Of a DNA stretch of 64,000 bases, positions 5,972 through 53,752 are shown piece after piece (the stretch's first letter is position 1; every line of letters begins with the position of its first letter). Source of the DNA: Bryobacterales bacterium (GTDB lineage: Bacteria > Acidobacteriota > Terriglobia > Bryobacterales > UBA6623); contig JAPPLB010000150.1 in NCBI GenBank assembly GCA_028819575.1, positions 8,683-72,682 on the forward strand. The letters run 5' to 3'. The position numbers and the translations under genes are program-made. A model generated the notes under the pieces. The model worked only from the letters and a program-made list of their open reading frames with translations. It was not told the DNA's origin and did not search any database.

Positions 5972-6317
5972 GGAGCACGTTCGCTGCCAAACGCGGTCTA
6001 TGGCGGAGGGCGTCTAAATGCTTGAAAAACGATAGTGTATCGGTATTTCTCGAAGCTGCCGAAAGAGTTCCCGGTGCAGGAATCCCGTTTCTGGAAGCCG
6101 AGCCTGTGAATCCTGGGATAATTCGGCATGGCATGCCCCTTCCGTTCGGGCTGTGCACGGGGCATTCTCATCATCGACAGCGGAGGACGTTGATCGAGTC
6201 TTGTTCGGGCAGGCACGGAATCAACCCTGACCCGCATTCTTCCGCAAAGCCCGGTTCAATCGTGCGGCCGCGCTCTCGACCGGTCTCCCTGAAGCGTGCG
6301 CAAAGCGCTGAAACCGG

Positions 6318-6463
6318 CCTGCATAAAAAAGGCTGTGATTCGTGTTTCGTGCCTCGTGATTCATGAAAACCTAAAAACAGTGGCTAGTGGCTAGTGAAAG
6401 CCTTGAAAGCCCTGATTCGTGATGCGCACGGACTTCGCCTCGTTGCCTGGCGAGAAATGCAAG
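6318..6463. repeat. degenerate copy of the mosaic MITE-like element (heptads plus CAGTGGCTAGTGGCTAGTGA module)
   Basis: Ends are CCTGCAT... and ...CGAGAAATGCAAGC. The internal sequence is the reverse complement of modules seen at 49440-49500. Confidence 0.7.
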
Positions 6464-6645
6464 CTGTTGAAACTAATTGGACGACTCAGCCGTACCGTCC
6501 CTTGCAGGGCAGGTGAGGCAGAGTGTGTTTTTGTTCACCAAGATTTACTTGACGCGCCCTGGCAAGGTAGCTAGAATCGAGGCTAGAATATTGCGGTAGA
6601 AATCCGTCCGGTCGAAGCGCCGGCCCGAACACGGTCCGTTTAGAG

Positions 6646-8307
6646 GTGGCTATGCGGCGAATGCTCATTGTTGGTTGGCTTGTTGTTTTCATCGCTCTCG
6701 GTTTCACTCCCTCGTTGGTTGAAGGAGCCGAGGGGGAGGAGCCGCGGCAACTCTCGAAGAAGGAAGAGAAGAAACGACTGAAGCAGCTTCAAGACGAGTT
6801 GCGCGGACCCTTCAGGAAGTGGATGCGTGAAGATGTCCGCTACATCCTGACGTCGGAAGAAAGAAAGGCTTTTGTTCGTCTGACGACGGACGAGGAGCGT
6901 GAGAACTTCATCGAGCAGTTCTGGCTGCGGCGAGACCCCACTCCCGACACGCAAGAGAACGAATACCGGGAAGAGCACTACCGGCGGATCGCCTACTCCA
7001 ACGAGCGGTACGCATCAGGCATTCCCGGCTGGAGGACCGACCGCGGCCGCATCTACATCACCTTCGGTCCTCCCGACGAGATCGAATCGCACCCCTCCGG
7101 AGGGATGTACCAGAGACCGTATGAGGAAGGCGGCGGAATGACCTCGACCTACCCCTTCGAGATCTGGCGCTATCGCTGGATCGAGGGTGTCGGCCAGGAC
7201 GTATTGATTGAATTCGTAGATCCCACGATGACAGGCGAGTACCGCATGACGTTGGATCCCTCTGAAAAGGACGCCCTGCTCTACGTGCCGGGCGCTGGCC
7301 TCACGCTCGCCGAGCAGATGGGGCTCTCGGAAAAACGCGACCGCTTCATGCGCAGCGACGGCACCCGCATGGGCACTCCGATCGGCGGTGCGGTGTCGAT
7401 GCGTTACAACCAGTTCGAACGACTGCAACGATGGGCCGCTCTGCAGAAACCTCCTGAGATCAAGTTCAAGGATCTCGAGGCCGTCGTTGACTCCAGCATT
7501 GAATACAACACCTTGCCGGTTCGGATCGAGGTGCAATATACGCGGATCACGAACGAGAATATTCTGGCCGGAGTATCGGTTCAGTTGGATAACAAGGACC
7601 TGGTCTTCCGCGAAGAAGACGGACGGCACAAGGCGATCGTCAACATCTACGGCCGCGTGACGACGATGACCCGTCGCGTGGCGGCGATCTTCGAAGACGT
7701 GGTCACCGTGGATACCACCACGGAACGGCTTCCGTACGAGTCTGAACGATCAGCGCTCTACCAGAAACCATTGATTCTGGTGCCGGGGATGTATCGCCTG
7801 GAAGTCGTCTCGAAAGACGTGGTCGGCGAGACCATGAGTACCTATCGCACGGCGCTCGAGGTCCCGCAGTACGACGACGAGCGACTGGCGTCGAGCACGT
7901 TGATTCTGGCGGACCGCATCGAGCGTGTCCCGATGCGGTCACTCGGTCTGGGCCAGTTCGTGATCGGCAGCTCGAAAGTGCGCCCGCGCATCAACGAGGA
8001 GTTCAAGCAGGATGAGCGCCTGGGCATCTACCTGCAGGTTTACAACCTGGGCGAGGACGACTCGAGTTCGGAACCCAAAGGCAGCGTGACCTACCAAGTC
8101 GCACGCCTCGATCAGCCGGATGAATTGCTGTTGGACTTCACCGAGCCGATCAGTCAGATTCGCGGCGCCACTTCGAAGCAGATGATCGTGGAGAAGTTGT
8201 TGCCGCTCAAGACGTTGGATCCGGGAGAATACCGGCTTAGCCTGAGAGTGAACGATTCCATCAGGAACGAAACCCTAACACCATCGACAACGTTCAGGGT
8301 CAGGTAG
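6646..8307 (+). CDS. GWxTD domain-containing secreted protein
   Basis: N-terminal signal-like helix and the literal motif GWRTDRGRIYITFGPPDEIESHP. Confidence 0.85.
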   Translation: MAMRRMLIVGWLVVFIALGFTPSLVEGAEGEEPRQLSKKEEKKRLKQLQDELRGPFRKWMREDVRYILTSEERKAFVRLTTDEERENFIEQFWLRRDPTPDTQENEYREEHYRRIAYSNERYASGIPGWRTDRGRIYITFGPPDEIESHPSGGMYQRPYEEGGGMTSTYPFEIWRYRWIEGVGQDVLIEFVDPTMTGEYRMTLDPSEKDALLYVPGAGLTLAEQMGLSEKRDRFMRSDGTRMGTPIGGAVSMRYNQFERLQRWAALQKPPEIKFKDLEAVVDSSIEYNTLPVRIEVQYTRITNENILAGVSVQLDNKDLVFREEDGRHKAIVNIYGRVTTMTRRVAAIFEDVVTVDTTTERLPYESERSALYQKPLILVPGMYRLEVVSKDVVGETMSTYRTALEVPQYDDERLASSTLILADRIERVPMRSLGLGQFVIGSSKVRPRINEEFKQDERLGIYLQVYNLGEDDSSSEPKGSVTYQVARLDQPDELLLDFTEPISQIRGATSKQMIVEKLLPLKTLDPGEYRLSLRVNDSIRNETLTPSTTFRVR

Positions 8308-17887: not shown

Positions 17888-18337
17888 GGTTCCAGCCTCG
17901 CGAAAGGCCGCACCACAAGCTATTATACCCGACGGGATGCGGCGGCAACGGAAGACCCGAATGCACTGCGCCGGCGGGAAGAGAAGATCTTCGCCGCCGG
18001 CGCAGGTAGGTTCGTATGTGGGAAGAGCCGAGGTTTACCAGAACGCAGTGTGATTCGGGACACGTCGCGGTTCAGGAATTACCTCAACCGCTCTGGTTCA
18101 CCTCTCATCTACAATCAAGACGAACGAACAATGATTTTTTTCGGCAGGAACGTGCGAGAACTGCGAGCAACCTCGCCTGAAGGGGCTCGGGAGGCTTAAA
18201 CTGTTGTTTCATAGGGCTTTTTCGTAATGCTCAAATTGACAGTGATCTGCTGGAAAGACGAAAATGAGGTTGTCCTGCCGTAAGAATGTCTGCCTGATAC
18301 GTCTAATACTTTCAGGCACAGTGGCACCTGGAGCGCT

Positions 18338-18886
18338 GTGCAGTTGAATGGTGAGCATGATTCGGCCCTACGCGAGACGGAGACAGTCTTTGCTTCGTAT
18401 CGAGAGAGCCTGATCCGCTACCTTCGGTACCAGATGGAAGACAACTCCGAAGCCGAAGACATTGCTCAAGAGGCGTTCGTTCGCTACTACGAGTCAAGAG
18501 TCCGAAGAGAGGAGATTCTCCAGCCCCGCGCCTGGTTGTTTCGAGTAGCCCACAACTTGGTGATCGACCGCGGGCGGAAAAAGAAGCCGGAGTTATTGGA
18601 CGATGAGGCTTGGCTGAATGTGGAGCGGCGATTAGCTTCTCCTTCGGCTCCCGCGGACGAAAAAGTCTACATATCGCAGTTACCGTGGCACCGGCTCAGT
18701 AAGATGGAGTTGGAGTGCATGAGGCTGCGGACGGAAGGTTTGAAGCTCCGAGAGATCGGGGAAGTGTTGGGTCTGGCTATCTCAAGTGTCGTCAGTTACC
18801 TGGCCAGAGCCACGAAGAAGTTAGGAGCGACAGAAGTCGGTGAGAATAAGGCATCTCAGCACGGAAGAACTCCTGCTCCGGTGTGA
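18338..18886 (+). CDS. ECF-type RNA polymerase sigma-70 family factor
   Basis: Region 2 (AEDIAQEAFVRYY...WLFRVAHNLVIDRGRK) and region 4 HTH (REIGEVLGLAISSVVSYLARA). Start is GTG or TTG and is uncertain. Confidence 0.88.
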   Translation: MQLNGEHDSALRETETVFASYRESLIRYLRYQMEDNSEAEDIAQEAFVRYYESRVRREEILQPRAWLFRVAHNLVIDRGRKKKPELLDDEAWLNVERRLASPSAPADEKVYISQLPWHRLSKMELECMRLRTEGLKLREIGEVLGLAISSVVSYLARATKKLGATEVGENKASQHGRTPAPV

Positions 18887-37443: not shown

Positions 37444-37642
37444 CTGGTTGTGATGAACCCGCGGCCATTGCGGGAAGATGCATCCCTCAAGAAGACGTGC
37501 TCTGCAAATTCTGGTCGTCCGGGCGATGTGCTCCAAGCGCATTGACCTGTTCGAGCTCTCATTATATGGCCCGTTCCATTCCGGCCCTGATCGGCGCCCT
37601 GACAGCCCATGCGAAGGAAAAGTCCTGCCGCATCGTTCGTCG

Positions 37643-37669
37643 GCAGGCTGGAAGCCTGTGCTCCCAGGG
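37643..37669. repeat. REP-like 27-mer GCAGGCTGGAAGCCTGTGCTCCCAGGG
   Basis: 23 of 27 positions identical to 1227-1253. It abuts the truncation point of the DUF1156 stub. Confidence 0.6.
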
Positions 37670-37768
37670 ATGTCCGTTCCGGATCGACTTCTCCCGCACA
37701 TCGCGCCGCGACACTTCAGCGATGGGAAAGTCCACCTCGGTCAGCCTCTTGCGCTCCTTGGGGATCAC
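37667..37768 (-). pseudogene. N-terminal stub of a DUF1156-type putative DNA methylase
   Basis: (M)IPKERKRLTEVDFPIAEVSRRDVREKSIRNGHP matches the DUF1156 N-terminus. The expected [11 protein letters not shown] is missing. GTGA overlap with the HEPN gene's stop. Confidence 0.6.
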
Positions 37769-38157
37769 AAACGCTCCTCGGCCCAGCGAACCACGGCTTC
37801 GGCGATCTCGATTGCCTTCGCATATTGTTGCTCAGTGACAGGCTGGTCGATCCCCGGGTAGCGAGTGATCGTAGCGAATTGGGTAAGCTTCCTGGCCTGG
37901 CCGACGTCATCCGGGATCGCCTCGCCTGCATCTTTGAGCATGGAAAGCAAACGTGCCAGGTCATGCACATACGGGAAGTCAATGCCACGCTTGATCATCA
38001 GCGCCTTGATAGCCTTCTCGGCGGCCTGTTGTGCGTCGAAGCACAGATCCTCCAGGTAGACGCCGGGGATACGGTTCACCGCCATGGCCAGATTGCTGCG
38101 GGAGCGGTTCAACCATTCCCGGGGATCGTCCGCTGGAAAACGTTCAGGCGGCTTCAT
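37765..38157 (-). CDS. HEPN domain toxin-like protein (of a HEPN/MNT pair)
   Basis: ...AQQAAEKAIKALMIKRGIDFPYVHDLARLL...ITRYPG is typical of PF05168-type HEPN. It overlaps the upstream MNT gene by 14 nt. Confidence 0.85.
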   Translation of the reverse strand: MKPPERFPADDPREWLNRSRSNLAMAVNRIPGVYLEDLCFDAQQAAEKAIKALMIKRGIDFPYVHDLARLLSMLKDAGEAIPDDVGQARKLTQFATITRYPGIDQPVTEQQYAKAIEIAEAVVRWAEERL

Positions 38158-38473
38158 AGATCACCCGGCCTTCCCGCAGTGCAGGTTTGATGATCACCGC
38201 GTGGCTATCCCTGTACCGCTCCACGTCGCCAGGCGTGACCACAACCGCGTCGATCGCTACACCGATGCCGTCCAGGTTCATGTATATCTCGCCCGTCAGT
38301 TCCAGAACGTCGGCGCCCTCCTTGATGATGAGCAAGTCCACGTCGCTGTGCGGTCCCATCTTGCCCCGGGCAGCGGACCCGAAGAGAATGATCTTCTCCG
38401 GCCGGGCCACCTCTACGATGCGCCGGATGATTTCGTCCAACGTCTCTTGATCAAGTATCCTTCGGGCCCTCAT
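38144..38473 (-). CDS. minimal nucleotidyltransferase (MNT) antitoxin-like protein
   Basis: ILFGSAARGKMGPHSDVDLLI carries the GS-x9-12-DxD nucleotidyltransferase motif. 109 aa. Confidence 0.88.
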   Translation of the reverse strand: MRARRILDQETLDEIIRRIVEVARPEKIILFGSAARGKMGPHSDVDLLIIKEGADVLELTGEIYMNLDGIGVAIDAVVVTPGDVERYRDSHAVIIKPALREGRVIYEAA

Positions 38474-38529
38474 TTGTCAAATCCTCAATGAATGTCAGGA
38501 TGATCCGCTGCATTCCGCCGTCCGGACTC

Positions 38530-38683
38530 ATCGCGCTTGTCCACCTGTGAGGCCGCCGCGCCCGCCGCAGGTGCAGCTCGACGGCTGCCCGCGACGGATC
38601 GACTTCTCCAGCGCCGCGTGCCGCGACACTTCGGAGATCGGAAAGTCCACCTCGCCCAGCCGCTTGCACTCCTTGTGGATCAT
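38530..38683 (-). pseudogene. second, frameshifted N-terminal stub of a DUF1156-type methylase
   Basis: MIHKECKRLGEVDFPISEVSRHAALEKSIRRGQP is followed, after a frame change, by ...VELHLRRARRP (compare [11 protein letters not shown]). Confidence 0.6.
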
Positions 38684-38698
38684 GGTTCTTCATTTTGT

Positions 38699-38914
38699 CT
38701 ACGAACGAGGCGGAACGATGATCTTACATCTGGGGCCGCTGGATTGGCCCAGCTTTCTGCCCAACGTCACTAGCGGGCAATCGAGCGCCTCGGCCAACAC
38801 CAGTTCCGGGCCGGCCGGATAGCCCTCGGTGACCGCGGATTCCGCCCACTTCCCCTCCTTCCCCGAGTCGACCAGGGCTGCGGCCAGCACGGACGCATCG
38901 ACGACCACCGTCAC
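38699..38914 (-). pseudogene. vapC: internally deleted PIN-domain VapC toxin
   Basis: GTG overlaps the antitoxin stop (GTGA). VTVVVDASVLAAALVDS is the PIN N-terminus and ...ALDCPLVTL... is the PIN C-terminus, but only 71 codons remain. Confidence 0.65.
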
Positions 38915-39189
38915 CGCCGGTCCATATCGCGGGCGCTGAGAATGTTGGCGGGTCGGACACGGGTTTCCGCCGCCGCCTTGCGCTCCCGCACTCCTTGCAG
39001 CCAAGTGTCGAGAGAAGGACGGGAGGCGATGCGTTCCAACTCGGAGCGGAGAAATTCCTGCATCGATTGGCGTTGCAACGCCGCCCGCGCCGCAAGCTCG
39101 TCGCGCACTTCCTGGGGGACTCCTCTGATGGTGATCTGTACCGGTATGAACGCATTATGCCATATTAATATTGATTTGGGGCCAGACAC
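38911..39189 (-). CDS. vapB: ribbon-helix-helix (FitA/VapB-like) antitoxin
   Basis: ...PVQITIRGVPQEVRDELAARAALQRQSMQEFLRSELERIA is a typical RHH plasmid-stability antitoxin. The N-terminal extension and GTG start are uncertain. Confidence 0.75.
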   Translation of the reverse strand: MSGPKSILIWHNAFIPVQITIRGVPQEVRDELAARAALQRQSMQEFLRSELERIASRPSLDTWLQGVRERKAAAETRVRPANILSARDMDRR

Positions 39190-39191
39190 CT

Positions 39192-40484
39192 ATGGACGAA
39201 GATGCTTTAACTGCCGCACTGAAGAATGTGCTCATCCAAGTTGATGACGTCAGCATCGCCACTCGTGATGTCAGCATCCGCACACAGAGTGGATATCTAT
39301 TAACAGAAGGCCCTCTGTTGGCGGAAATGCGAGAGTCGAATATTGACCACGAGCTTGCAAAGATTATTTTTCCCATTTTGGAAGTGCAGCCAGAATTCAA
39401 AGACAAAGCACTGATGATCAACACGGGTGGCGGATCCATGGGATTCCACAGTCAATTTGTTGCAACCGTGTTAGTTCGCGAGGCACGGCGTCGGAAATCG
39501 GCAAAGGATGCTGTCAGGTGGCTAAAAAAAGTGCTAGAGACCGACAGTGCGGAGATGTTGGTTATTCAGACTCTGTGGGGCATATCTCCGAAAAACCGGA
39601 TTTCCGTCTGGAAAGACGTAGAGTTACTTCCGTTCGAATCTCTGCCCCCTTCTCGTCAGAAGGAGCAAATCACAAATGTTCTCGATTGGCCTTACAATTT
39701 GCGCCTTCCAACACTTTTTTTTGCACATGAACCTCCTACTGCAGCGCTAATTTCGAAGACGGAAGTCCGTCCCTTTCTGATTGACAAATCCATAGAAGAA
39801 AACTCAACGGATAGAGACATCCGTAAAGCCTACCCTCCGTTGGATGACATCAGACTCTGCCTGGGTCTGGAAGGTCCATCGATCATTATTGCTGGACCAA
39901 GTTGGTTCCAATACGTCGATGCAGACTTGGAAGCGGCCCTTATCGCCACGAGTAGCAGCTATGGCAGTCAGGAGATATTACCTTTTGGTCTTCTTATAGA
40001 TTCTTTAGAGACGACAACTAACCTGCAAGCTATTGTGCGAGGATACATGGCATTGGAACAGAGAGTAAAAAATCAGGTTCATATCGCTCTTGAGAGGCTC
40101 CATCAAGCTCTTATCCGCACGGATCCGGCCGCACGTGCACTTGAAGTATCAATCGCGTTAGAAACATTGCTGATTGATGACCCTGGTGAGCATACATTCA
40201 AGATCTCGTATCGTGCGTCTCTGCTTATTTCTGACACGGTTGAGGAACGGATGGAAGCCAGGGCAATAATTCAGGCTGCTTATAGCATGCGGAGTGCTCT
40301 TGTGCATAGCGGTCAGACTAAGTCCATGGTTAAGATCAAAGGTCAGGGAGAGAAGTCAGCGGAAGAAGTCGCTAGTAGTGCTGTCACAATCACTGCGCTC
40401 GTGATCAAGCGAATCATAATGCGAGGTAGTATCCCTGAATGGAATCGATTTGAGTTATCAGACGGTAGAATATGGAAGTCCTAG
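39192..40484 (+). CDS. low-GC orphan protein with unknown N-terminal domain and C-terminal HEPN-like domain carrying Rx4H (candidate ApeA-like defence RNase)
   Basis: Compositional break at the island edges. AAYSMRSALVHSG contains R-x4-H at 40290-40307, inside a helical C-terminal region of about 140 aa. ATG 39192 is preferred over TTG 39171. Confidence 0.6.
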   Translation: MDEDALTAALKNVLIQVDDVSIATRDVSIRTQSGYLLTEGPLLAEMRESNIDHELAKIIFPILEVQPEFKDKALMINTGGGSMGFHSQFVATVLVREARRRKSAKDAVRWLKKVLETDSAEMLVIQTLWGISPKNRISVWKDVELLPFESLPPSRQKEQITNVLDWPYNLRLPTLFFAHEPPTAALISKTEVRPFLIDKSIEENSTDRDIRKAYPPLDDIRLCLGLEGPSIIIAGPSWFQYVDADLEAALIATSSSYGSQEILPFGLLIDSLETTTNLQAIVRGYMALEQRVKNQVHIALERLHQALIRTDPAARALEVSIALETLLIDDPGEHTFKISYRASLLISDTVEERMEARAIIQAAYSMRSALVHSGQTKSMVKIKGQGEKSAEEVASSAVTITALVIKRIIMRGSIPEWNRFELSDGRIWKS

Positions 40485-40486
40485 CA

Positions 40487-40717
40487 TTAGCGGACCCTCC
40501 ATCTGACGAGTTTGGTATGTTCTGCTGAACAGTTACATGTGCAGATGGGGTAGTCCAGAAGAGGGGTTCCCCCGGCCTTTTCCAGAAGGGCAAGAAGGCA
40601 GTTGAGGTCGTGCACGAGCGGGAAGTCGATATAACCTGCGGCGAAGCTACTGATCAGGCCGAGCATCCGCATGAACAGATCCCAGAGGGACTGGATTTCG
40701 TAGGTGGCCATGGTCAA
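40487..40717 (-). pseudogene. chimeric relic: duplicated 3' fragment of the SSS transporter fused to a HEPN gene fragment
   Basis: MATYEIQSLWDLFMRMLGL and FAAGY copy residues of the 40826-43378 product. IDFPLVHDLNCLLALLEKAGG resembles IDFPYVHDLARLLSMLKDAGE of the HEPN gene. Confidence 0.7.
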
Positions 40718-40727
40718 TCTGAGGAGC

Positions 40728-40775
40728 GCAGGCTACTAGCCTGCCTGAGAAGAGTGCGGGCAAGATGCCCGCGCA
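40728..40775 (-). terminator. two adjacent GC-rich hairpins downstream of the transporter operon (REP-like or terminator)
   Basis: GCAGGCTA-C-TAGCCTGC at 40728-40744 and GCGGGC-AAGAT-GCCCGC at 40757-40775. There is no U-tract. Confidence 0.4.
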
Positions 40776-40825
40776 AGGAGAGCAGAAGCCGCCGGCGCGG
40801 GGTTGCACAACCGCCCGGTCTGCGA

Positions 40826-43378
40826 TCAGATTCGTTCCGGCGGGATTTGCGTATAGACGGTCAGGCCCTTGAGGCCTTTGGGGCGGTCTGGGAGGAGGAG
40901 GCTGGCGAGGTAGCCAGCGGCGAAGCAGGTGAGCAGGCCGATGGCCGCGTACAGGAAGAAGCTGACGGCGGTATGGGTCTGGACCCAGTAGATGACTGCG
41001 GCGCTGATGACGGCCCCGATGAGCGCCCCTCGTCCGTTGGCGCGGCGGGTGAACATGCCGACCGCGAAGAGTCCGGCCATGCCGCTGCTGAGCAGGCCGA
41101 GCATCCGCATGAACAGATCCCACAGCGACTGGATCTCGTAGGTGGCCATGGTCGCGGCGGTGACGGTAGCGATCAGGCCGAGTCCGGCGGTCAGCCACCG
41201 CGCCAGGCGCAGGCGGACGGCATCCGTGGATTCAGGTCGGAAACGGGCGTAGAAATCCGTCACGACGGCGGTCGAGACGCTGTTCAGGCCGCTGTCGAGA
41301 GTGGACATCGAAGCGGCGAACAGGGCGGCGATGACGATCCCGGTGATGCCGGAGGGCAATTGCTGTGAGATGAAGTGGGGGAAGATCGAGTCCGTGGGCA
41401 GGTTGGGGCTCAGGAGTTCGGGCGTGAGCTTGTAGAAGACGTAGAGCGCAGTGCCGAGCAGGAACCAGACGATAGTTTCCGGCAGCACGATGGCGGCGTT
41501 CATCCAGATGGAATCGGCGGCGCTTTTTTCGTCACGCGTCGTGAGATAGCGTTGGACGACAACCTGGTCGGAGGTGTAGGTGACCAGGTTGATGAAGAGG
41601 TTTCCGATGACGAGGACCCATATCGTACTGGTCGTGTAGTCCCAGCCCCAATGGATGACTTTGAATTTGTCATCGGCCATGCCGAGCGAGAAGATCGTCG
41701 ACAATCCTCCGTCGACGCCGAAAATCATGATCACCAGGCACAACAGGCCGCCGCCGAGCAGGACGATGGCTTGCAGCACGTCCGTCCAGACGACGGCCTC
41801 GATGCCGCCGAGAACGGTGTAGAGCGTGCTGAGAACGCCCATCACGACAATGCAGACGTAGACGTTCATGCCGGTGACGGCGGAGAGGGCCATCGCCGGC
41901 AGAAACAGGACGATCGCCATGCGGCCGAGTTGAAAGAGGATGAACGCGGCGCTGGCGTAGAGGCGGGTCGCGAGGTTGAAGCGCCGCTCCAGGTATTCGT
42001 AGGCGCTGGTGAGGTTGAGGCGGCGAAAGAACGGCAGATAGAAGTAGACCACCACCGGCGTGATGAGCATGAAGGCGAACGTGTTGACGAAGTAGGCCCA
42101 GTCGGTGGCGTAGACCTTGGCTGGAGCCGCCATGAAGGTGATGGCGCTGAGTTGGGTTCCGAAGAGGCTGATGCCGGCCGCCCACCAGGGGATGCGGCGG
42201 CCGGCCAGGAAGTAGTCGGCGGTGGTTTTCTCGCGGCGGGAGAAGTAGACGCCCATCCCGATGAGCATCGCGAGGTATGCGCCGAGGCAGACGTAGTCGA
42301 GCGTGGTGAAGCCGCTGGGCTGATGGCGGGTTTCGAGGGCAAGCACGTGCGGGGAGCGGTGGCCGGGGCGGTCTTCGCCGGAGGCGATGACGATGCGGCC
42401 GTTCCAGCGCGTTGCGGAGGTTGTGACGAGCGCTTCGGTCATCTCGCCGAGTTCGGTCCAGGTGTCGGTGATGGTGTGGTAGGCGAGTACGGTCTTGGGG
42501 AAGCCGGGATGGTCGTCGCCCAGTCCCTGCGCGCGGAAGAAGAGCTCGCCGTCGTCACCGCTGAAGATGAGGATGTGGCTCGGACCCTCGGTGATGGCTG
42601 AGGCGGCGACGACGGGGTGCGGAACGTCGGCGACCTGCTGCCATCCGGCTTCGGGGCGATAGCGGTATGCGTCGGTCAGGAAACGGCGGGTAGTCGAGCC
42701 GTCCTCGGCGGTGACGAGCTCGGCGCCGCTGAAAACGTAGATCGCGCCATCCTGCGCCGCGGCGGCGGGAAGGATGCGAGCGGGGCCGGGCCAGGGGTCG
42801 AGAACTTCCCAGACGGATTCGGGATCGCCGAGGTCGAGCCGCCAGAAGTTGTTCATCGCGCGGGTGGAGTCGGGGGCTTGCTGGCCGCCGGCGATATAGA
42901 TCGATGTGCCGAGCAGGGCGGCGCTGGTCATGGCGCAGGCTTCAGGCAGGTCGGGAAGTTGTCGTTGATGGAGAGTTCCATCCTGCCATTGGAGAAGCCG
43001 GACGTCGCGGTAATGGCGTTGGGCATCGCCGCCGCCGAGAAGGATGAACCCTTCTTCTGTCGAAACGCTCCCGCCGTAGGCCAGCGGATGCTCGAGCTGG
43101 AAGTTGGACAGCCAGTCATCGGAGCCCGGCTCGAGGATGTATACCTCGCGCCGCCACTGCTTGGTCCCGCCCTGAAATGGGGAGATGGGGAAGTTCGAGC
43201 CGCCGGCGACCACGAGCGCCTCATTGGATACGCCGACGAAAGGCCCGCCGAGGCCGAGGGGCGTGGGGAGGTCTGGGAGGAGAGACCACTGGAGGGGCGT
43301 CTCATGTGCTTCGTTCGCGGTTGCCGGGAGCGCCCCAGCGATCAGGAAGAGTATGAGGCCGACGGCGGTGCGTTTCAT
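40826..43378 (-). CDS. fusion protein: periplasmic six-bladed Kelch/NanM-like (sialic acid mutarotase family) domain plus sodium:solute symporter (SSS)
   Basis: Signal peptide. Six Kelch-like blades (LVVAGGSNF, FILLGGGDA, IYIAGGQQA, IYVFSGAEL, ILIFSGDDG, IVIASGED). This is followed by about 500 aa of 13-14 TM SSS core (GRRIPWWAAGISLFGTQLSAITFM). Confidence 0.85.
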   Translation of the reverse strand: MKRTAVGLILFLIAGALPATANEAHETPLQWSLLPDLPTPLGLGGPFVGVSNEALVVAGGSNFPISPFQGGTKQWRREVYILEPGSDDWLSNFQLEHPLAYGGSVSTEEGFILLGGGDAQRHYRDVRLLQWQDGTLHQRQLPDLPEACAMTSAALLGTSIYIAGGQQAPDSTRAMNNFWRLDLGDPESVWEVLDPWPGPARILPAAAAQDGAIYVFSGAELVTAEDGSTTRRFLTDAYRYRPEAGWQQVADVPHPVVAASAITEGPSHILIFSGDDGELFFRAQGLGDDHPGFPKTVLAYHTITDTWTELGEMTEALVTTSATRWNGRIVIASGEDRPGHRSPHVLALETRHQPSGFTTLDYVCLGAYLAMLIGMGVYFSRREKTTADYFLAGRRIPWWAAGISLFGTQLSAITFMAAPAKVYATDWAYFVNTFAFMLITPVVVYFYLPFFRRLNLTSAYEYLERRFNLATRLYASAAFILFQLGRMAIVLFLPAMALSAVTGMNVYVCIVVMGVLSTLYTVLGGIEAVVWTDVLQAIVLLGGGLLCLVIMIFGVDGGLSTIFSLGMADDKFKVIHWGWDYTTSTIWVLVIGNLFINLVTYTSDQVVVQRYLTTRDEKSAADSIWMNAAIVLPETIVWFLLGTALYVFYKLTPELLSPNLPTDSIFPHFISQQLPSGITGIVIAALFAASMSTLDSGLNSVSTAVVTDFYARFRPESTDAVRLRLARWLTAGLGLIATVTAATMATYEIQSLWDLFMRMLGLLSSGMAGLFAVGMFTRRANGRGALIGAVISAAVIYWVQTHTAVSFFLYAAIGLLTCFAAGYLASLLLPDRPKGLKGLTVYTQIPPERI

Positions 43379-44790
43379 TCGTCAGCGATCGCCGGGCGCT
43401 TCAGGTGCCAGTCGGTCGCCTGTTCGTAGGCGTGGCCGATTTCCAGAATGCCCGCTTCGTCCCAGAGGCGGCCGATGATCTGTAGGCCGATGGGGAGATT
43501 CTCTTCGGTGAGGCCGCAGGGGACGGAGAGCAGTGGCAGGCCCGTGAGGTTCAGCGCGCGTGCGTTCCGGGTGGTGGCGATCCGGACGTTGTGTTCGACG
43601 CCGGCGACGGTCAGGGTGTTTTGGCCGATCTTGGCGGGAGGCACCGGGATCGTAGGAGTGACGATCGCGTCGACACTGCCGAGGAGCTCGTTGAAGGCGT
43701 CGATGAGAGCGCGCCGTCGGCGCTGGGCATTCAGGTATTCGGATGCTCGGATGAAGCGGCCCTGATCGAAGAGCGCGCGTACGTCGTCACCGATCTCGCT
43801 TCGCCGTTCGCGCAGCCGTTTCTCGTGCACGGACGTGGCCTCGGCAAGCAGGATGAGTCTGCCGATCTCGTTGAACTCTTCGATGTCGGGGACCTTGATC
43901 GAGACCAGCTCGGCGCCGATGTCTTCGAGCACCGTAATCGCTTTGCGCGCGGCCGCTTCGATGTCGGGGTGCAGGCCGTCGAAGTAGAAGTTTTCGGGGA
44001 TGCCGAGCTTTCGGCCGGCAAGAGTGGGCTCCGGTCCCAGTCTTGGTTCGATCACGGGTTGATCGGCGCAGCTTTCGTCGCGCGGATCTCCGCCCGCCAT
44101 GGCGCAGTAGACATCCGCGGTGTCGCGAACGGTGCAGCCGAAGGGGCCGGCGTGATCGAGGGTGTGGCCAAGGGGGAAGACGCCGTAGCGGCTCACCCGT
44201 CCGAAGGTGGGCTTGAGGCCGACAAGGCCGCAGAAGGACGCGGGGATGCGGATCGAGCCGCCGGTGTCCGAACCGAGCGAGAAGCTGCAAAGGCCTCCGG
44301 CGAGAGCGGAGGTCGAGCCCCCGCTCGATCCGCCGGGAATGCGGTCGGTGTCCCAGGGATTGCGAATGGCTCCGTAGTGCGGATTGTTGCTCGTGATGCC
44401 GTAGGCCCATTCATGCAAACCCGCCTTGCCGAGCATCACCGCCCCCGCGGCGGTCAGTTTCTCGATGACGGCGCAGTCGAAGTCGGGGATGAAGTCGTCC
44501 ATGATCTTCGAACCGATAGTGGTCTTGATGCCCTTGGTGTAGAAGAGGTCTTTGGCGGCATAGGGAATGCCGTGGAGCTTGCCGCGGTAGTTGCCCGCCC
44601 GGATTTCCTGCTCGGCCTGCCGCGCCTGTGCGAGAGCATGCTCGGCGGTGACGGTGATGAAGGCGTTCAGGCGGGGTTGCCGCCTTTCGATGAGGTCGAT
44701 TAGGTGTTGCGTAAGTTCGACGGGGGAAAGTTCGCCTCGCTCGATTCTGGGAGCGAGATCCGTGATGGTGAGATTCATTGCTTGATTCAA
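43375..44790 (-). CDS. amidase-signature family amidase (GatA-like)
   Basis: GGSSGGS motif and the Ser-cisSer-Lys signature context (KDLFYTKG...GGSSGGSTSALA). ATGA overlap with the downstream transporter gene. Confidence 0.9.
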   Translation of the reverse strand: MNQAMNLTITDLAPRIERGELSPVELTQHLIDLIERRQPRLNAFITVTAEHALAQARQAEQEIRAGNYRGKLHGIPYAAKDLFYTKGIKTTIGSKIMDDFIPDFDCAVIEKLTAAGAVMLGKAGLHEWAYGITSNNPHYGAIRNPWDTDRIPGGSSGGSTSALAGGLCSFSLGSDTGGSIRIPASFCGLVGLKPTFGRVSRYGVFPLGHTLDHAGPFGCTVRDTADVYCAMAGGDPRDESCADQPVIEPRLGPEPTLAGRKLGIPENFYFDGLHPDIEAAARKAITVLEDIGAELVSIKVPDIEEFNEIGRLILLAEATSVHEKRLRERRSEIGDDVRALFDQGRFIRASEYLNAQRRRRALIDAFNELLGSVDAIVTPTIPVPPAKIGQNTLTVAGVEHNVRIATTRNARALNLTGLPLLSVPCGLTEENLPIGLQIIGRLWDEAGILEIGHAYEQATDWHLKRPAIADE

Positions 44791-50795: not shown

Positions 50796-52850
50796 TCAGA
50801 CGGCTACGAGCGGCGCGATGACCAGGGCGACGATGGACATCAGCTTGATCAGGATGTTCATCGAGGGGCCTGAGGTGTCTTTGAACGGGTCGCCGACGGT
50901 GTCGCCGACGACGGTTGCCTTGTGAGCTTCGCCGCCCTTCTGCTCGCCCGCTACTTCGCCCTTCTCGATGGCCTTCTTGGCGTTGTCCCAGGCGCCTCCG
51001 GCGTTGGCCATGAAGAGCGCCAGCAGCACGCCGGCGACGGTGGCTCCGGCGAGCATGCCGCCGAGAGCTTCCGGGCCCAGCAGGTAGCCGACGGTGACCG
51101 GAGCGCTGACGGCGATGACTCCGGGCACGACCATTTCTTTCAGCGCGGCCGCCGTGGCGATGTCGACGCAGCGGGCGGCGTCGGGCTTGACGCCGGGCTC
51201 GCCGGCCAGCAGCCCCTTGATTTCGCGGAACTGCCGCCGAATTTCTTCCACCATCAGACTGGCTGCGCGGCCGACGCTTGTCATCGTTTGCGCCGCGATG
51301 ATGAATGGCAGCGTGCCGCCGATCAGTAGCCCGATCACGACGCGGGCATCGTTGATCTGGATGACGACCGCTTCGAGACCCTGGCTGAGGCGGACGGCGT
51401 CCACAGCCTGAGTGTAGGCGGAGAAGAGCGCCAGGGCGGCGAGGGCGGCGGAGCCGATCGCGAAACCCTTGCCCATGGCCGCTGTGGTGTTGCCCAGCGA
51501 ATCGAGCTCGTCGGTGATGGCGCGCACGTCGGGTCCGAGACCGGCCATCTCCGAGATGCCGCCGGCATTGTCGGCAATCGGGCCATACGCATCGACGCTC
51601 ATCGTGATGCCCACCGTCGCCAGCATGCCGACCGCCGCAATGCCTATTCCATACAGGCCGGCTACCTCATGTGCGAGGTAAATCGCGAGACAGATCATGA
51701 ACACGGGGAAGGCGCAGCTCCGGAAGCCGACGGCCAGACCCTGAATGATGTTGGGGGCGGCGCCGGTTTTGGAAGCTTCCGCAATATCCCGGATCGGCCC
51801 CATCGACGTGTAGTACTCGGTGATAAAGCCGATTGCGACGCCGGCCACCGTGCCGGCCAGGACGGCCCAGAACACGGATTGGCTCACTCCGACCGCGCCA
51901 ACCGCGGCGTAGCCGCCCGCGAGGAAGAGCAGGGCGGCGAGCCAGGCGGAATAGCGGAGAGCGGATGCCGGCCCCATGCTCTTGAGAACCTGGATCGAGA
52001 GGATGCCGAGCAGGGACGCAATCGTACCCACTGCCGCCAGCACGAGCGGCAGCGACATCAAGCCCGCGCGGACCGCCTCGGCGCTGTTGCCCGCGGCTAG
52101 CAGTTGCAGTCCTTCGGTGGACAGCGTGGCGGCGATGGCCAGGGTGGCGATCATCGACCCTACGTAGGATTCGAAGATATCGGCGCCCATGCCGGCGACG
52201 TCGCCGACGTTGTCGCCGACGTTGTCGGCGATGACACCGGGATTGCGAGGATCGTCTTCCGGGATGCCCGCTTCGACCTTGCCCACCAGGTCGCTGCCGA
52301 CGTCAGCGGCCTTGGTGTAGATGCCTCCGCCCACGCGGGCGAACAAGGCGATGGAGCTCGCTCCCATCGCGAATCCGTTGATGTAGACGGCCTCTTCCAC
52401 GCCGGAGAAGACTTGCGCGAAGATCCCGACGCCAAGCAGGCCAAGCCCGGCTACCGCGAGGCCCATCACCGATCCGCCGCCGAATGCGACGAGCAGCGCG
52501 GCGTCCGTACCCTCGGCTCGCGCGGCTTCGCTGGTGCGCGAGTTGGCCTTGGTGGCCGCTTTCATTCCGACGAAACCGGCGACCACGGAGAAGATCGCTC
52601 CCGAGATGAAGCAGATGGCGGTTTCGACGCTGAGCTTCCAGGCCAGCAGCGCGGCGACAATGACGACGAAGACGCCCAGAATGCGGTATTCGCGATAGAG
52701 GAACGCCATCGCGCCGCGATGGATCAGTTCGGAGATTTCCCGCATGCGCTCATTGCCGGGCGAGCGTTTGCCGACCATGATGAAGAGCAACAGAGCGCAT
52801 AAGAGCCCGAGCAAACCGATATACGGAGTGAGTGCAAGAAGATCGTTCAT
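50796..52850 (-). CDS. hppA: membrane-bound proton/sodium-translocating pyrophosphatase
   Basis: ...[18 protein letters not shown]..., ...DNAGGISEM... and ...[23 protein letters not shown]... are H+-PPase signatures. About 16 TM helices. Confidence 0.95.
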
Positions 52851-53137
52851 TTTCCGAGATAAGACAGAACTGACAATATGGGGCGGGGGACCCCTGCCTG
52901 ATACCTTCTACCGGCGGTCCGGGAAGACCGCAATGGGAATTCTCAGCGTAACATGCATTCGTCAAGGATGGCTACGGCGGCGGCGTTGCATGTCGGCGTA
53001 ATGTGAAAAGTTCGTCCTGCGAGCCGGACAGGACGTTCCCCTTCATCTGACCTGAAACATCCTGTTGATCAAGCCGGGTTGACACTCATCCGGATGTTTC
53101 CTGTCTGAATGCTCCGCCCAGGAGCGGAGAAAAAAAC

Positions 53138-53212
53138 GGCCCGTCAGACATTTCTTCTGGAGCGAACCAAGCCCCACCAAATGCATTTCACGAAACACGA
53201 GTCACGAAACGC
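53138..53212. repeat. solo module S plus heptads of the MITE-like family
   Basis: GGCCCGTCAGACATTTCTTCTGGAGCGAACCAAGCC...TTTCACGAAACACGAGTCACGAAAC. Confidence 0.7.
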
Positions 53213-53229
53213 AAACGTTGCATATGGGC

Positions 53230-53253
53230 ACTGAAGCCCTTCAGTCTTTTTTT
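53230..53253 (+). terminator. intrinsic-terminator-like hairpin plus T7 run (ACTGAAGCCCTTCAGTCTTTTTTT) in an intergenic region
   Basis: A 6-bp stem, a 4-nt loop and seven consecutive T. There is no protein gene upstream on the + strand. Confidence 0.4.
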
Positions 53254-53752
53254 GCCGCCCGGCTTGCTTAGCATGAAGATCATGGCTCGTGATCAAGGCC
53301 TGGATTCGTTCCCTGCGAGCGCCTGCGAAGCAAAAATCCTTCCCGCTTCAGATCGTCTTGTTCGGGCGCGTTCCCTGCAAAGATTTCCCACGATTTCCCG
53401 GCATTTCCCAGGTACCCCCCCGCATCAAGTGCCCCTGATGTGAAACAAAGTTCCGGGCGCACCTGTCAATGGCAATCGAAAACTGCACACTTTTTGGAGA
53501 GACGTCGCTGGCGGCATTGATGTTCTTCCGTTGAGGCCCAACCCGAAACGCGGCGTGAAGCTGGGGGGCGGCGCCCTCCGGGCTTCTACCGCTGCGGCGG
53601 ACTCGAAATGAACCCATGCTGAGAATGGAGAACGTTCTTTATTGCGTTGACATGGACATGACGGTGCGCTGATATCGGCCTCCGGCGCGAACCGCTTCAG
53701 CCCGCCGACCAAGCATGGGCGGATACGGCCAAGAAGTTGATATCGTAAGCGT

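Follow-up and report, generated by a model that had tools for sequence, protein, structure and literature searches.

A gene at 39192..40484 (plus strand) of a 64,000-nt stretch of Bryobacterales DNA (GenBank assembly GCA_028819575.1, contig JAPPLB010000150.1, positions 8,683 to 72,682 of the forward strand; hereafter the window) encodes a 430-aa protein that, on balance, is likely to be a normally silent, self-contained ribonuclease (RNase) of the HEPN superfamily, which would act by itself against phage as an abortive-infection effector and travel on mobile DNA. The open reading frame (ORF), its homologues and AlphaFold2 (AF2) models identify the product as a member of a large family with an N-terminal domain of unfamiliar type and a C-terminal HEPN-like domain. 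By analogy, the family probably works in the manner of the defence protein ApeA, as a stand-alone HEPN RNase defence effector, but lies outside the ApeA family.

The C-terminal helical HEPN-like domain (residues ~286-430; 40047..40481, plus strand) was delineated by AF2, a profile search of PDB sequences and hhalign. Modelled by AF2 on the family alignment, the full-length protein adopts a confident two-domain structure (predicted local distance difference test, pLDDT, 85; predicted template modelling score, pTM, 0.81), and the C-terminal domain modelled alone scores higher (pLDDT 93.9, pTM 0.90). It comprises helices 290-308, 312-327, 335-346 and 350-373, a beta-hairpin (379-389) and a closing helix (390-411). 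The predicted catalytic Rx4H, R367-S-A-L-V-H372, is embedded in a Y364-x2-R-S-x-L-V-H-x-G374 block recognized by conservation and by alignment to Ec2ApeA. It falls exactly at 40290..40307 (plus strand), where an earlier reading of the window made from the sequence alone (the sequence-only reading) had located it. In both AF2 models, the motif sits at the C-terminal end of helix 350-373 and is followed by a loop, the beta-hairpin and helix 390-411. The same two lines of evidence mark E324, an acidic residue conserved in core helix 2, within I-A-L-E324-T-L-L (40152..40172, plus strand).

Conservation was assessed in two family alignments, one of 32 close sequences and one of 48 diverse sequences at 24-67% identity (80 members in all). 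Among the 48 diverse members only five columns are invariant (W238, R302, Y364, R367 and H372), and R367 and H372 are also invariant among the 32 closer ones. Conservation reaches at least 90% of the diverse set at S368 (44/48), G374 (46/48), E324 (47/48), R309 and R341, and A322 is kept in 44 of the 48. An Rx4H is expected about 0.45 times by chance in a protein of 430 aa, and two more Rx4-6H matches, starting at R47 and R291, are present and unconserved. The weight of the motif therefore comes from the family-wide invariance of R367 and H372 and not from the Rx4H by itself.

To relate the domain to solved structures, a C-terminal profile built from 34 diverse members was compared with 177,635 distinct PDB sequences. 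The top three matches were all Ec2ApeA entries (9HXB, 9HXD and 9HXI; E=0.0056-0.0085), and every other match had E>0.4. Two stretches align colinearly. In the first, 'vELaIALEaLLgD' of the family is paired with residues 365-378 of ApeA, 'LNLWIAIESLIPD' (at its core, 'ELaIALEaLL' with 'LWIAIESLI'), which places the E324 block opposite ApeA 'WIAIESLI'. In the second, 'alYklRSklVHeGk' is paired with 'RIYRTRNLIVHTGK' (core 'YklRSklVHeGk' with 'YRTRNLIVHTGK'), which carries the catalytic R502, and the Y364/R367/H372/G374 block thereby faces Y499/R502/H507/G509 of Ec2ApeA. R502A is the published catalytic mutant of that protein (10.64898/2026.01.26.701840). A homologue search with a 53-aa Ec2ApeA fragment returned no candidates, and eight further ApeA homologues were obtained from plasmids by tblastn, three of which were checked against the PADLOC ApeA model (E=7e-5 to 6e-11).

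Published descriptions define the HEPN domain by a conserved Rx4-6H that lies at the end of core helix 3 and runs into the loop to helix 4, together with a second conserved acidic residue in helix 2, typically in the form Ex3[KR] (PMC3710099). The placement of R367 and H372 resembles this arrangement, and the polar residue that follows the arginine is S368 (asparagine in ApeA). E324 lies in helix 312-327, the second helix of the preceding hairpin; it has no K or R at +4 and is thus not an Ex3[KR]. We consider it highly probable that the C-terminal domain is a HEPN RNase domain, and we give an even chance to the narrower proposal that its closest relatives are in the ApeA clade. The sequence-only reading had called this region a C-terminal HEPN domain, and the invariant R367/H372 pair, its HEPN-like position at the end of a long helix and the Ec2ApeA match at E=0.006 support that call, which Foldseek and hhalign did not confidently confirm.

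The N-terminal alpha/beta domain (residues 1 to ~285; 39192..40046, plus strand), presumed to have a sensory or regulatory role, was delimited by secondary structure, pLDDT and conservation and has about eight strands in the AF2 model. Its conserved positions are mostly structural (W110, W129-G130, P147, P152, P182, P194, G228-P229 and the invariant W238), and A185 and P264 are conserved as well. Conserved polar residues are few (S154, K157, D243 and E261), two of them forming, with P152, a conserved LPxSxQK motif. When a profile of this domain was compared with PDB sequences, no chain matched, ApeA included. Foldseek searches of PDB and BFVD with the full-length model gave nothing at E<0.06, and PF18862 (ApeA_NTD1) matched none of the 80 members at E<=1. 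At the level of sequence, the N-terminal 285 residues show no similarity to the N-terminal or Mid domains of ApeA. The earlier suggestion that this domain may be undescribed is therefore in agreement with searches of Pfam, PADLOC, NCBIfam, PDB sequences and Foldseek, none of which produced a match. It is a tentative and rather doubtful extension of these results that the domain represents a previously unrecognised sensor fold joined to a minimal ApeA-type HEPN, so that the family would form a new anti-phage system, widespread and made up of one gene (at least 1,600 clusters in at least six phyla) responding to a cue other than the deoxydinucleotides of ApeA.

The sequence-only reading had also described the protein as an orphan, which proved wrong. 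Five contigs from other samples encode the identical protein in the same gene order, and NCBI already labels it 'MAG: HEPN domain-containing protein [Bryobacterales bacterium]'; plasmid homologues are likewise called 'HEPN domain-containing protein', and JGI labels one family member 'Apea-like HEPN'. A word-indexed search of a 5.8-billion-protein set returned 53 clusters with identity down to 38%. An exhaustive phmmer search of 1.84 billion cluster representatives, each standing for a cluster at 50% identity, found 1,622 proteins at E<=1e-3, 610 at E<=1e-10 and 173 at E<=1e-30, and nearly all of the best 150 matches are full-length (400-440 aa). Members are found in Acidobacteria, Bacillota, Microcystis (Cyanobacteria), Nitrospina, Chlorobaculum and Alpha- and Betaproteobacteria, including Hyphomicrobiales and plasmids of Cupriavidus and Burkholderia. 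A second homologue search with the C-terminal profile as query returned only fragments from the same family. On the Microcystis ichthyoblabe chromosome (L027 7968-9212), a family member is broken into ORFs of 297 and 116 aa and is apparently a pseudogene.

Direct scans of the 430-aa protein against Pfam, PADLOC, NCBIfam and PDB (phmmer) gave no match, nor did full-length family profiles against PDB sequences. Among the 80 members, no Pfam, PADLOC or NCBIfam model covers the family, the sole contact being that of PF18739 (HEPN_Apea) with 1 member at E=0.017. As judged from these sequence searches, the protein thus belongs to a large unnamed family that has no model in the three libraries.

Several features of the locus point to a foreign origin. 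The ORF is intact and begins at ATG 39192. The mechanical ORF list places the start at TTG 39171, but all homologues open with MDxxALT (MD..AL(T/I)), and ATG 39192 was therefore taken as the real start. The GC content is 0.46-0.49 in 300-nt windows across 39100..40600 (a segment without strand), compared with 0.57-0.69 in the flanks on both sides. The gene itself has a GC content of 0.475 against 0.609 for the remainder of the window; among all stretches of 1293 nt in the 64 kb it ranks lowest (z = -4.7), and no other trough of such depth occurs there. Its GC content at third codon positions (GC3) is 0.47, compared with 0.67-0.84 in eight neighbouring genes. Promoter and terminator scans gave background levels. 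Shallower GC dips, of 0.52-0.54 in 600-nt windows, were seen at 17901-18800, 6301-6900 and 52801-53400.

These data agree with much of what the sequence-only reading had reported by eye. The sharp GC drop at about 39150-40500 is real, with the 37-50% first given being a rough but fair hand count. The statement that 39192-40484 is the sole ORF was too strict: the ORF is present, and nested ORFs, for neither of which there is support, also exist at 39155-39439 (minus strand) and 39518-39730 (plus strand). Similarly, the low-GC gene proposed as a one-gene island belongs to a longer variable segment.

This segment was defined by a blastn comparison with a metagenomic contig of a close relative (L035), whose transporter protein is 97% identical and whose flanks are 91-96% identical at the nucleotide level. 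Homology between the two ends at 37624 and restarts at 40805 (at ~40720 with gapped alignment). The interval 37625..40805 (no strand), which runs from a multihaem-cytochrome gene to a Kelch/NanM-SSS transporter gene, is therefore a strain-variable hotspot missing in the relative, where the cytochrome and transporter genes are ~640 nt apart. The low-GC gene is thus part of the accessory genome. Rather than a clean insertion of one gene, it is the right-hand cargo in a variable hotspot of 3.2 kb, all of which the relative lacks. The comparison with related genomes that the earlier reading had proposed as a check thus comes out in its favour. Horizontal acquisition, which it had also proposed, is probable: the GC and GC3 values are aberrant, the segment is missing in the relative, the family is patchy across phyla, and at homologue loci the GC content of the gene is mostly below that of its flanks (10 of 13 loci).

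We inspected the neighbourhoods of homologues in ~15 contexts, where they occur as single genes with no conserved partner, as expected from the earlier description of the protein as stand-alone. One locus carries Wadjet JetABCD, an Abi protein and integrases, another Gabija GajA/GajB, a third Mrr, HigBA and BrxB, a fourth GmrSD, HigBA and an integrase, and a fifth HNH, a large integrase and HipA. Other neighbours include the R subunit of type I restriction enzymes and transposases. Homologues in the backbones of plasmids or integrative and conjugative elements (ICEs) have RepA, ParA, TraG, ParE/Phd and Tn3 nearby. The predicted clustering with toxin-antitoxin (TA) and defence genes was thus found in many homologues, which lie in defence or mobile-element contexts, and the copy in the window lies among TA genes and their remnants. 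On Cupriavidus pinatubonensis plasmid p1 (L022 5506-10068), three genes on one strand adjoin or overlap one another, encoding an HNH endonuclease, a 727-aa 'phage integrase family' protein and the homologue; the gap upstream of the homologue is 3 nt, and the three may form an operon or a mobile cassette.

Candidate partners and origins were also considered. A small convergent downstream ORF was rejected as partner or antitoxin, the candidates at three loci being mutually unrelated. An AbiF-like RNA antitoxin or repeat array was rejected, as no tandem repeats and no Rfam match were found. The FitA-like gene upstream of the gene in the window is divergent and part of a decayed VapC pair, so it is not an operon antitoxin. 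A phage-borne origin is unsupported, as INPHARED and IMG/VR contained no match. The lack of a partner and of RNA-antitoxin-like repeats fits autoinhibition of the protein by its own N-terminal domain.

We propose the following mechanism. Residues ~286-430 would form a compact HEPN domain of four core helices, two copies of which would dimerise so that a site for metal-independent RNA cleavage arises from R367 and H372 of each, assisted by S368, Y364 and E324. The 285-residue N-terminal alpha/beta domain would keep the nuclease off and sense an infection cue, which may be a small molecule, a nucleic acid or a phage protein (compare the ApeA pocket between the N-terminal and HEPN domains). Once activated, the enzyme would cut cellular RNA, most plausibly, as ApeA, DARNA and PrrC suggest, in tRNA anticodon loops, and the infected cell would be arrested. 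We infer the fold, dimerisation, RNase activity, RNA target, sensor role and anti-phage phenotype alike; toxicity, too, is at present a prediction.

ApeA is the natural point of comparison. It is said to have been described by Gao et al. in 2020 as a single-gene defence system. Structures have been reported for Ec1-4ApeA and Thr1ApeA, in which proteins of ~590 aa consist of an N-terminal domain that is helical, a Mid domain that is PafA-like and a 'split' HEPN, and assemble into doughnut-shaped decamers or dodecamers whose ligand pocket is located between the N-terminal domain and the HEPN (10.64898/2026.01.26.701840). Like ApeA, the family protein is a single polypeptide with a C-terminal HEPN domain (here predicted), a non-catalytic N-terminal part and no partner gene, and both occur in defence islands and on plasmids. 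The two share the motifs [LI]-x-[IA]-A-[LI]-E-[ST]-L (in the 365-375 region of ApeA) and Y-x2-R-[SN]-x-[LI]-V-H-x-G (containing ApeA R502/H507). However, the family protein is shorter (430 aa against ~590 aa), and its two motifs are separated by ~20 residues in a compact HEPN, compared with ~110 in ApeA, where an insertion of ~100 aa has no counterpart here. Its N-terminal 285 residues are alpha/beta, in contrast to the helical N-terminal and PafA-like Mid domains of ApeA. BLASTP of the family protein against an ApeA homologue was empty, and the PADLOC ApeA model (PDLC02157) matched 0 of 48 members at E<=1, while the three Bacillales-plasmid ApeA homologues, used as positive controls, all matched it. 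Membership in the ApeA family was accordingly rejected: neither the PADLOC model nor PF18739 and PF18862 recognize the protein, and the three-domain architecture is absent. The earlier label 'ApeA-like' does not hold in the sense of family membership. The three plasmid ApeA homologues (L014, L015 and L016) are each followed, at a distance of 0.06-1.2 kb, by a xerS gene for a tyrosine recombinase. Pfam HEPN_Apea matches none of these homologues, and the coverage of PF18739 is therefore limited even for true ApeA.

Other single-protein or minimal HEPN systems resemble the family in part. ApeA_NTD1 is described as a beta-rich domain of ~300 aa with several conserved aromatics, fused to an ApeA-type HEPN (Anantharaman et al. 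2013, PMC3710099). The ~285-aa N-terminal domain studied here, with its strands and conserved W110, W129 and W238, is superficially similar and could be a remote homologue, but PF18862 fails to match any of the 80 members. DARNA/PD-T7-3 is a HEPN tRNase that acts as a single protein in abortive infection and has a large sensor domain without catalytic function (10.64898/2026.02.22.705581). In DARNA, however, the HEPN is N-terminal (R117x4H122) and the sensor is all-helical and Pds5-like, whereas the HEPN-like domain is C-terminal here, and the PADLOC models, that for DARNA included, did not match any of the 48 diverse members. HepT, of the HepT/MNT pairs, is likewise a minimal HEPN RNase with an Rx4H (the RNase activity being predicted in our case), and the variable segment itself holds an intact pair at a distance of 1 kb. 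Unlike the family protein, HepT has ~130 aa and always accompanies an MNT antitoxin; the family protein has no conserved partner, an extra domain of 285 aa and no PF05168/DUF86 match. PrrC/RloC and AbiD/AbiF (Abi_2) are HEPN RNases of defence contexts that stay latent until infection releases them, as we propose here. PrrC/RloC differ in having ABC-ATPase N-terminal domains and linkage to restriction-modification, neither of which is seen here, and AbiF differs in having an RNA antitoxin.

A number of results weigh against an anti-phage HEPN RNase, and three other explanations draw on them. One is that the protein has no HEPN domain at all but an unrelated helical bundle, with a conserved R...H pair of other function and an ApeA likeness that is a coincidence of short motifs. 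Foldseek with the pLDDT-94 C-terminal model recovered no solved HEPN structure from the PDB (best E=0.2); matches at E~3 were small four-helix-bundle proteins (2yqy and 2rld), and the full-length model found nothing in PDB or BFVD. Comparison of the C-terminal domain with the 8 ApeA homologues by hhalign gave P=0.0019 on the catalytic helix at a probability of only 14.5%, falling to 2.5-4.6% against ApeA at full length. The family profile aligns to the ApeA catalytic helix in 6 of these 8 homologues, weakly (E=2-400 at the same database size). Pfam HEPN models did not match the 430-aa protein even at E<=10, with the single contact of PF18739 noted above, and the link to ApeA consists of two short motifs with a score of 19.8 bits in a protein where chance alone could readily supply an Rx4H. 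Nevertheless, Ec2ApeA ranks first among all PDB sequences compared, and the two colinear motifs correspond to its conserved acidic helix and its catalytic helix. The motif closes a long helix and leads into a loop, a polar residue follows its arginine and a conserved glutamate lies upstream, all in keeping with the published HEPN definition, and the NCBI and JGI pipelines independently arrived at a HEPN label. We therefore regard the absence of a HEPN domain as quite improbable. A HEPN-like domain without a defence role, serving as a nucleotide- or ligand-binding module or as a cellular RNA-processing enzyme to which low GC and mobility are incidental, is in our estimate just as improbable. 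Some HEPN domains are indeed non-catalytic substrate-binding modules, although such domains typically lose the Rx4-6H (PMC3710099), and in this family R and H do not vary and the polar residue after R is almost invariant. Some homologues have only housekeeping neighbours, for example one between rpmB and a GH88 gene; among the loci inspected, a defence context of homologues is frequent and not universal. The patchy distribution across phyla, the missing gene in the close relative and the Microcystis pseudogene argue against a core role.

The remaining alternative accepts a HEPN RNase and assigns it to the maintenance of plasmids or ICEs or to competition between elements, as an addiction or exclusion toxin. 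Its control would fall to its own N-terminal domain, to proteolysis or to an antitoxin that is unlinked or not conserved. Several homologues in plasmid or ICE backbones do lie by RepA, ParA, relaxase and TraG genes and classic TA pairs, the copy in the window is embedded among TA genes and remnants, and no homologue was found on phage in INPHARED or IMG/VR. Against a toxin of this kind, no antitoxin-sized gene is conserved next to the homologues, the small convergent ORFs at three loci being unrelated; 430 aa with a large conserved N-terminal domain is atypical of a type II toxin; and several chromosomal copies adjoin Gabija, Wadjet, BREX BrxB, Mrr or GmrSD. A type II TA toxin of the HepT kind was rejected, as no conserved neighbour could serve as its operon antitoxin. 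An addiction toxin is, in our view, unlikely. Each of these explanations is less consistent than a single-protein anti-phage RNase with at least one of three observations, namely that the R/H pair is invariant, that no conserved partner gene accompanies the homologues and that many of them have defence genes nearby.

ApeA, DARNA and similar one-protein HEPN effectors at present serve as the clearest models of how infection sensing and a suicidal RNase can be coupled in one polypeptide. The family would be a smaller version of this design, with a compact HEPN and an N-terminal domain outside every library searched. Despite its abundance it has no model in Pfam, PADLOC or NCBIfam, and defence-annotation pipelines therefore pass it over. 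If validated, the family would provide a new sensor module and probably a new trigger, and many defence-island genes now labelled 'HEPN domain-containing' or 'hypothetical' could be annotated. Should it prove to have no defence role, it would be one more mobile HEPN toxin.

The remainder of the variable segment contains other TA genes and several remnants. An intact TA pair of MNT (38144-38473) and HEPN (37765-38157) genes occupies 37765..38473 on the minus strand (PF05168, E=1e-27; PF18765 and PF01909, E=1e-11 and 1e-10). The gene for the FitA-like ribbon-helix-helix antitoxin (38911..39189, minus strand; PF22513, E=8e-8) is divergent from the HEPN-like gene; its expected ATG appears as ATA, at the left edge of the low-GC segment (~39148). 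It is followed by a shortened PIN/VapC-like remnant of ~70 aa (38699..38920, minus strand), recognized by eye with no Pfam match, in which only the two ends of the protein seem to be preserved. The right edge of the island carries a 76-codon ORF (40487..40717, minus strand), which abuts the stop codon of the HEPN-like gene and was recognized as a chimeric remnant from a repeat and from HEPN similarity; it has no Pfam match. The repeat (D2) pairs 40646-40715 with 41084-41153 in the 3' part of the transporter gene (70 nt, 93% identical). The middle of the ORF encodes 20 aa that are 65% identical to the HEPN protein of the nearby MNT-HEPN pair (E=5e-7). The chimeric ORF looks like a recombination scar.

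In the close relative, the place of the segment is taken by a stretch (L035 1895-2530) with an ORF reading 'LLLTATPHKGD...' that looks like a SNF2-type helicase fragment, a label given by eye to a sequence with no Pfam match. Outside the segment, ARAGORN reported a tRNA-Glu(CTC) at 44253-44336 (minus strand), which lies wholly within an amidase ORF (43375-44790) and is probably a false positive. Within the segment, a 100-nt direct repeat (37668-37767 and 38583-38682, 82% identical) encodes in both copies a DUF1156-like N-terminal fragment ('EVDFPI(A/S)EVSR...EKSIR'), a label likewise read by eye, with copy 2 matching PF06634 at E=0.037 only. These fragments are probably decayed remnants of a methylase-based defence system.

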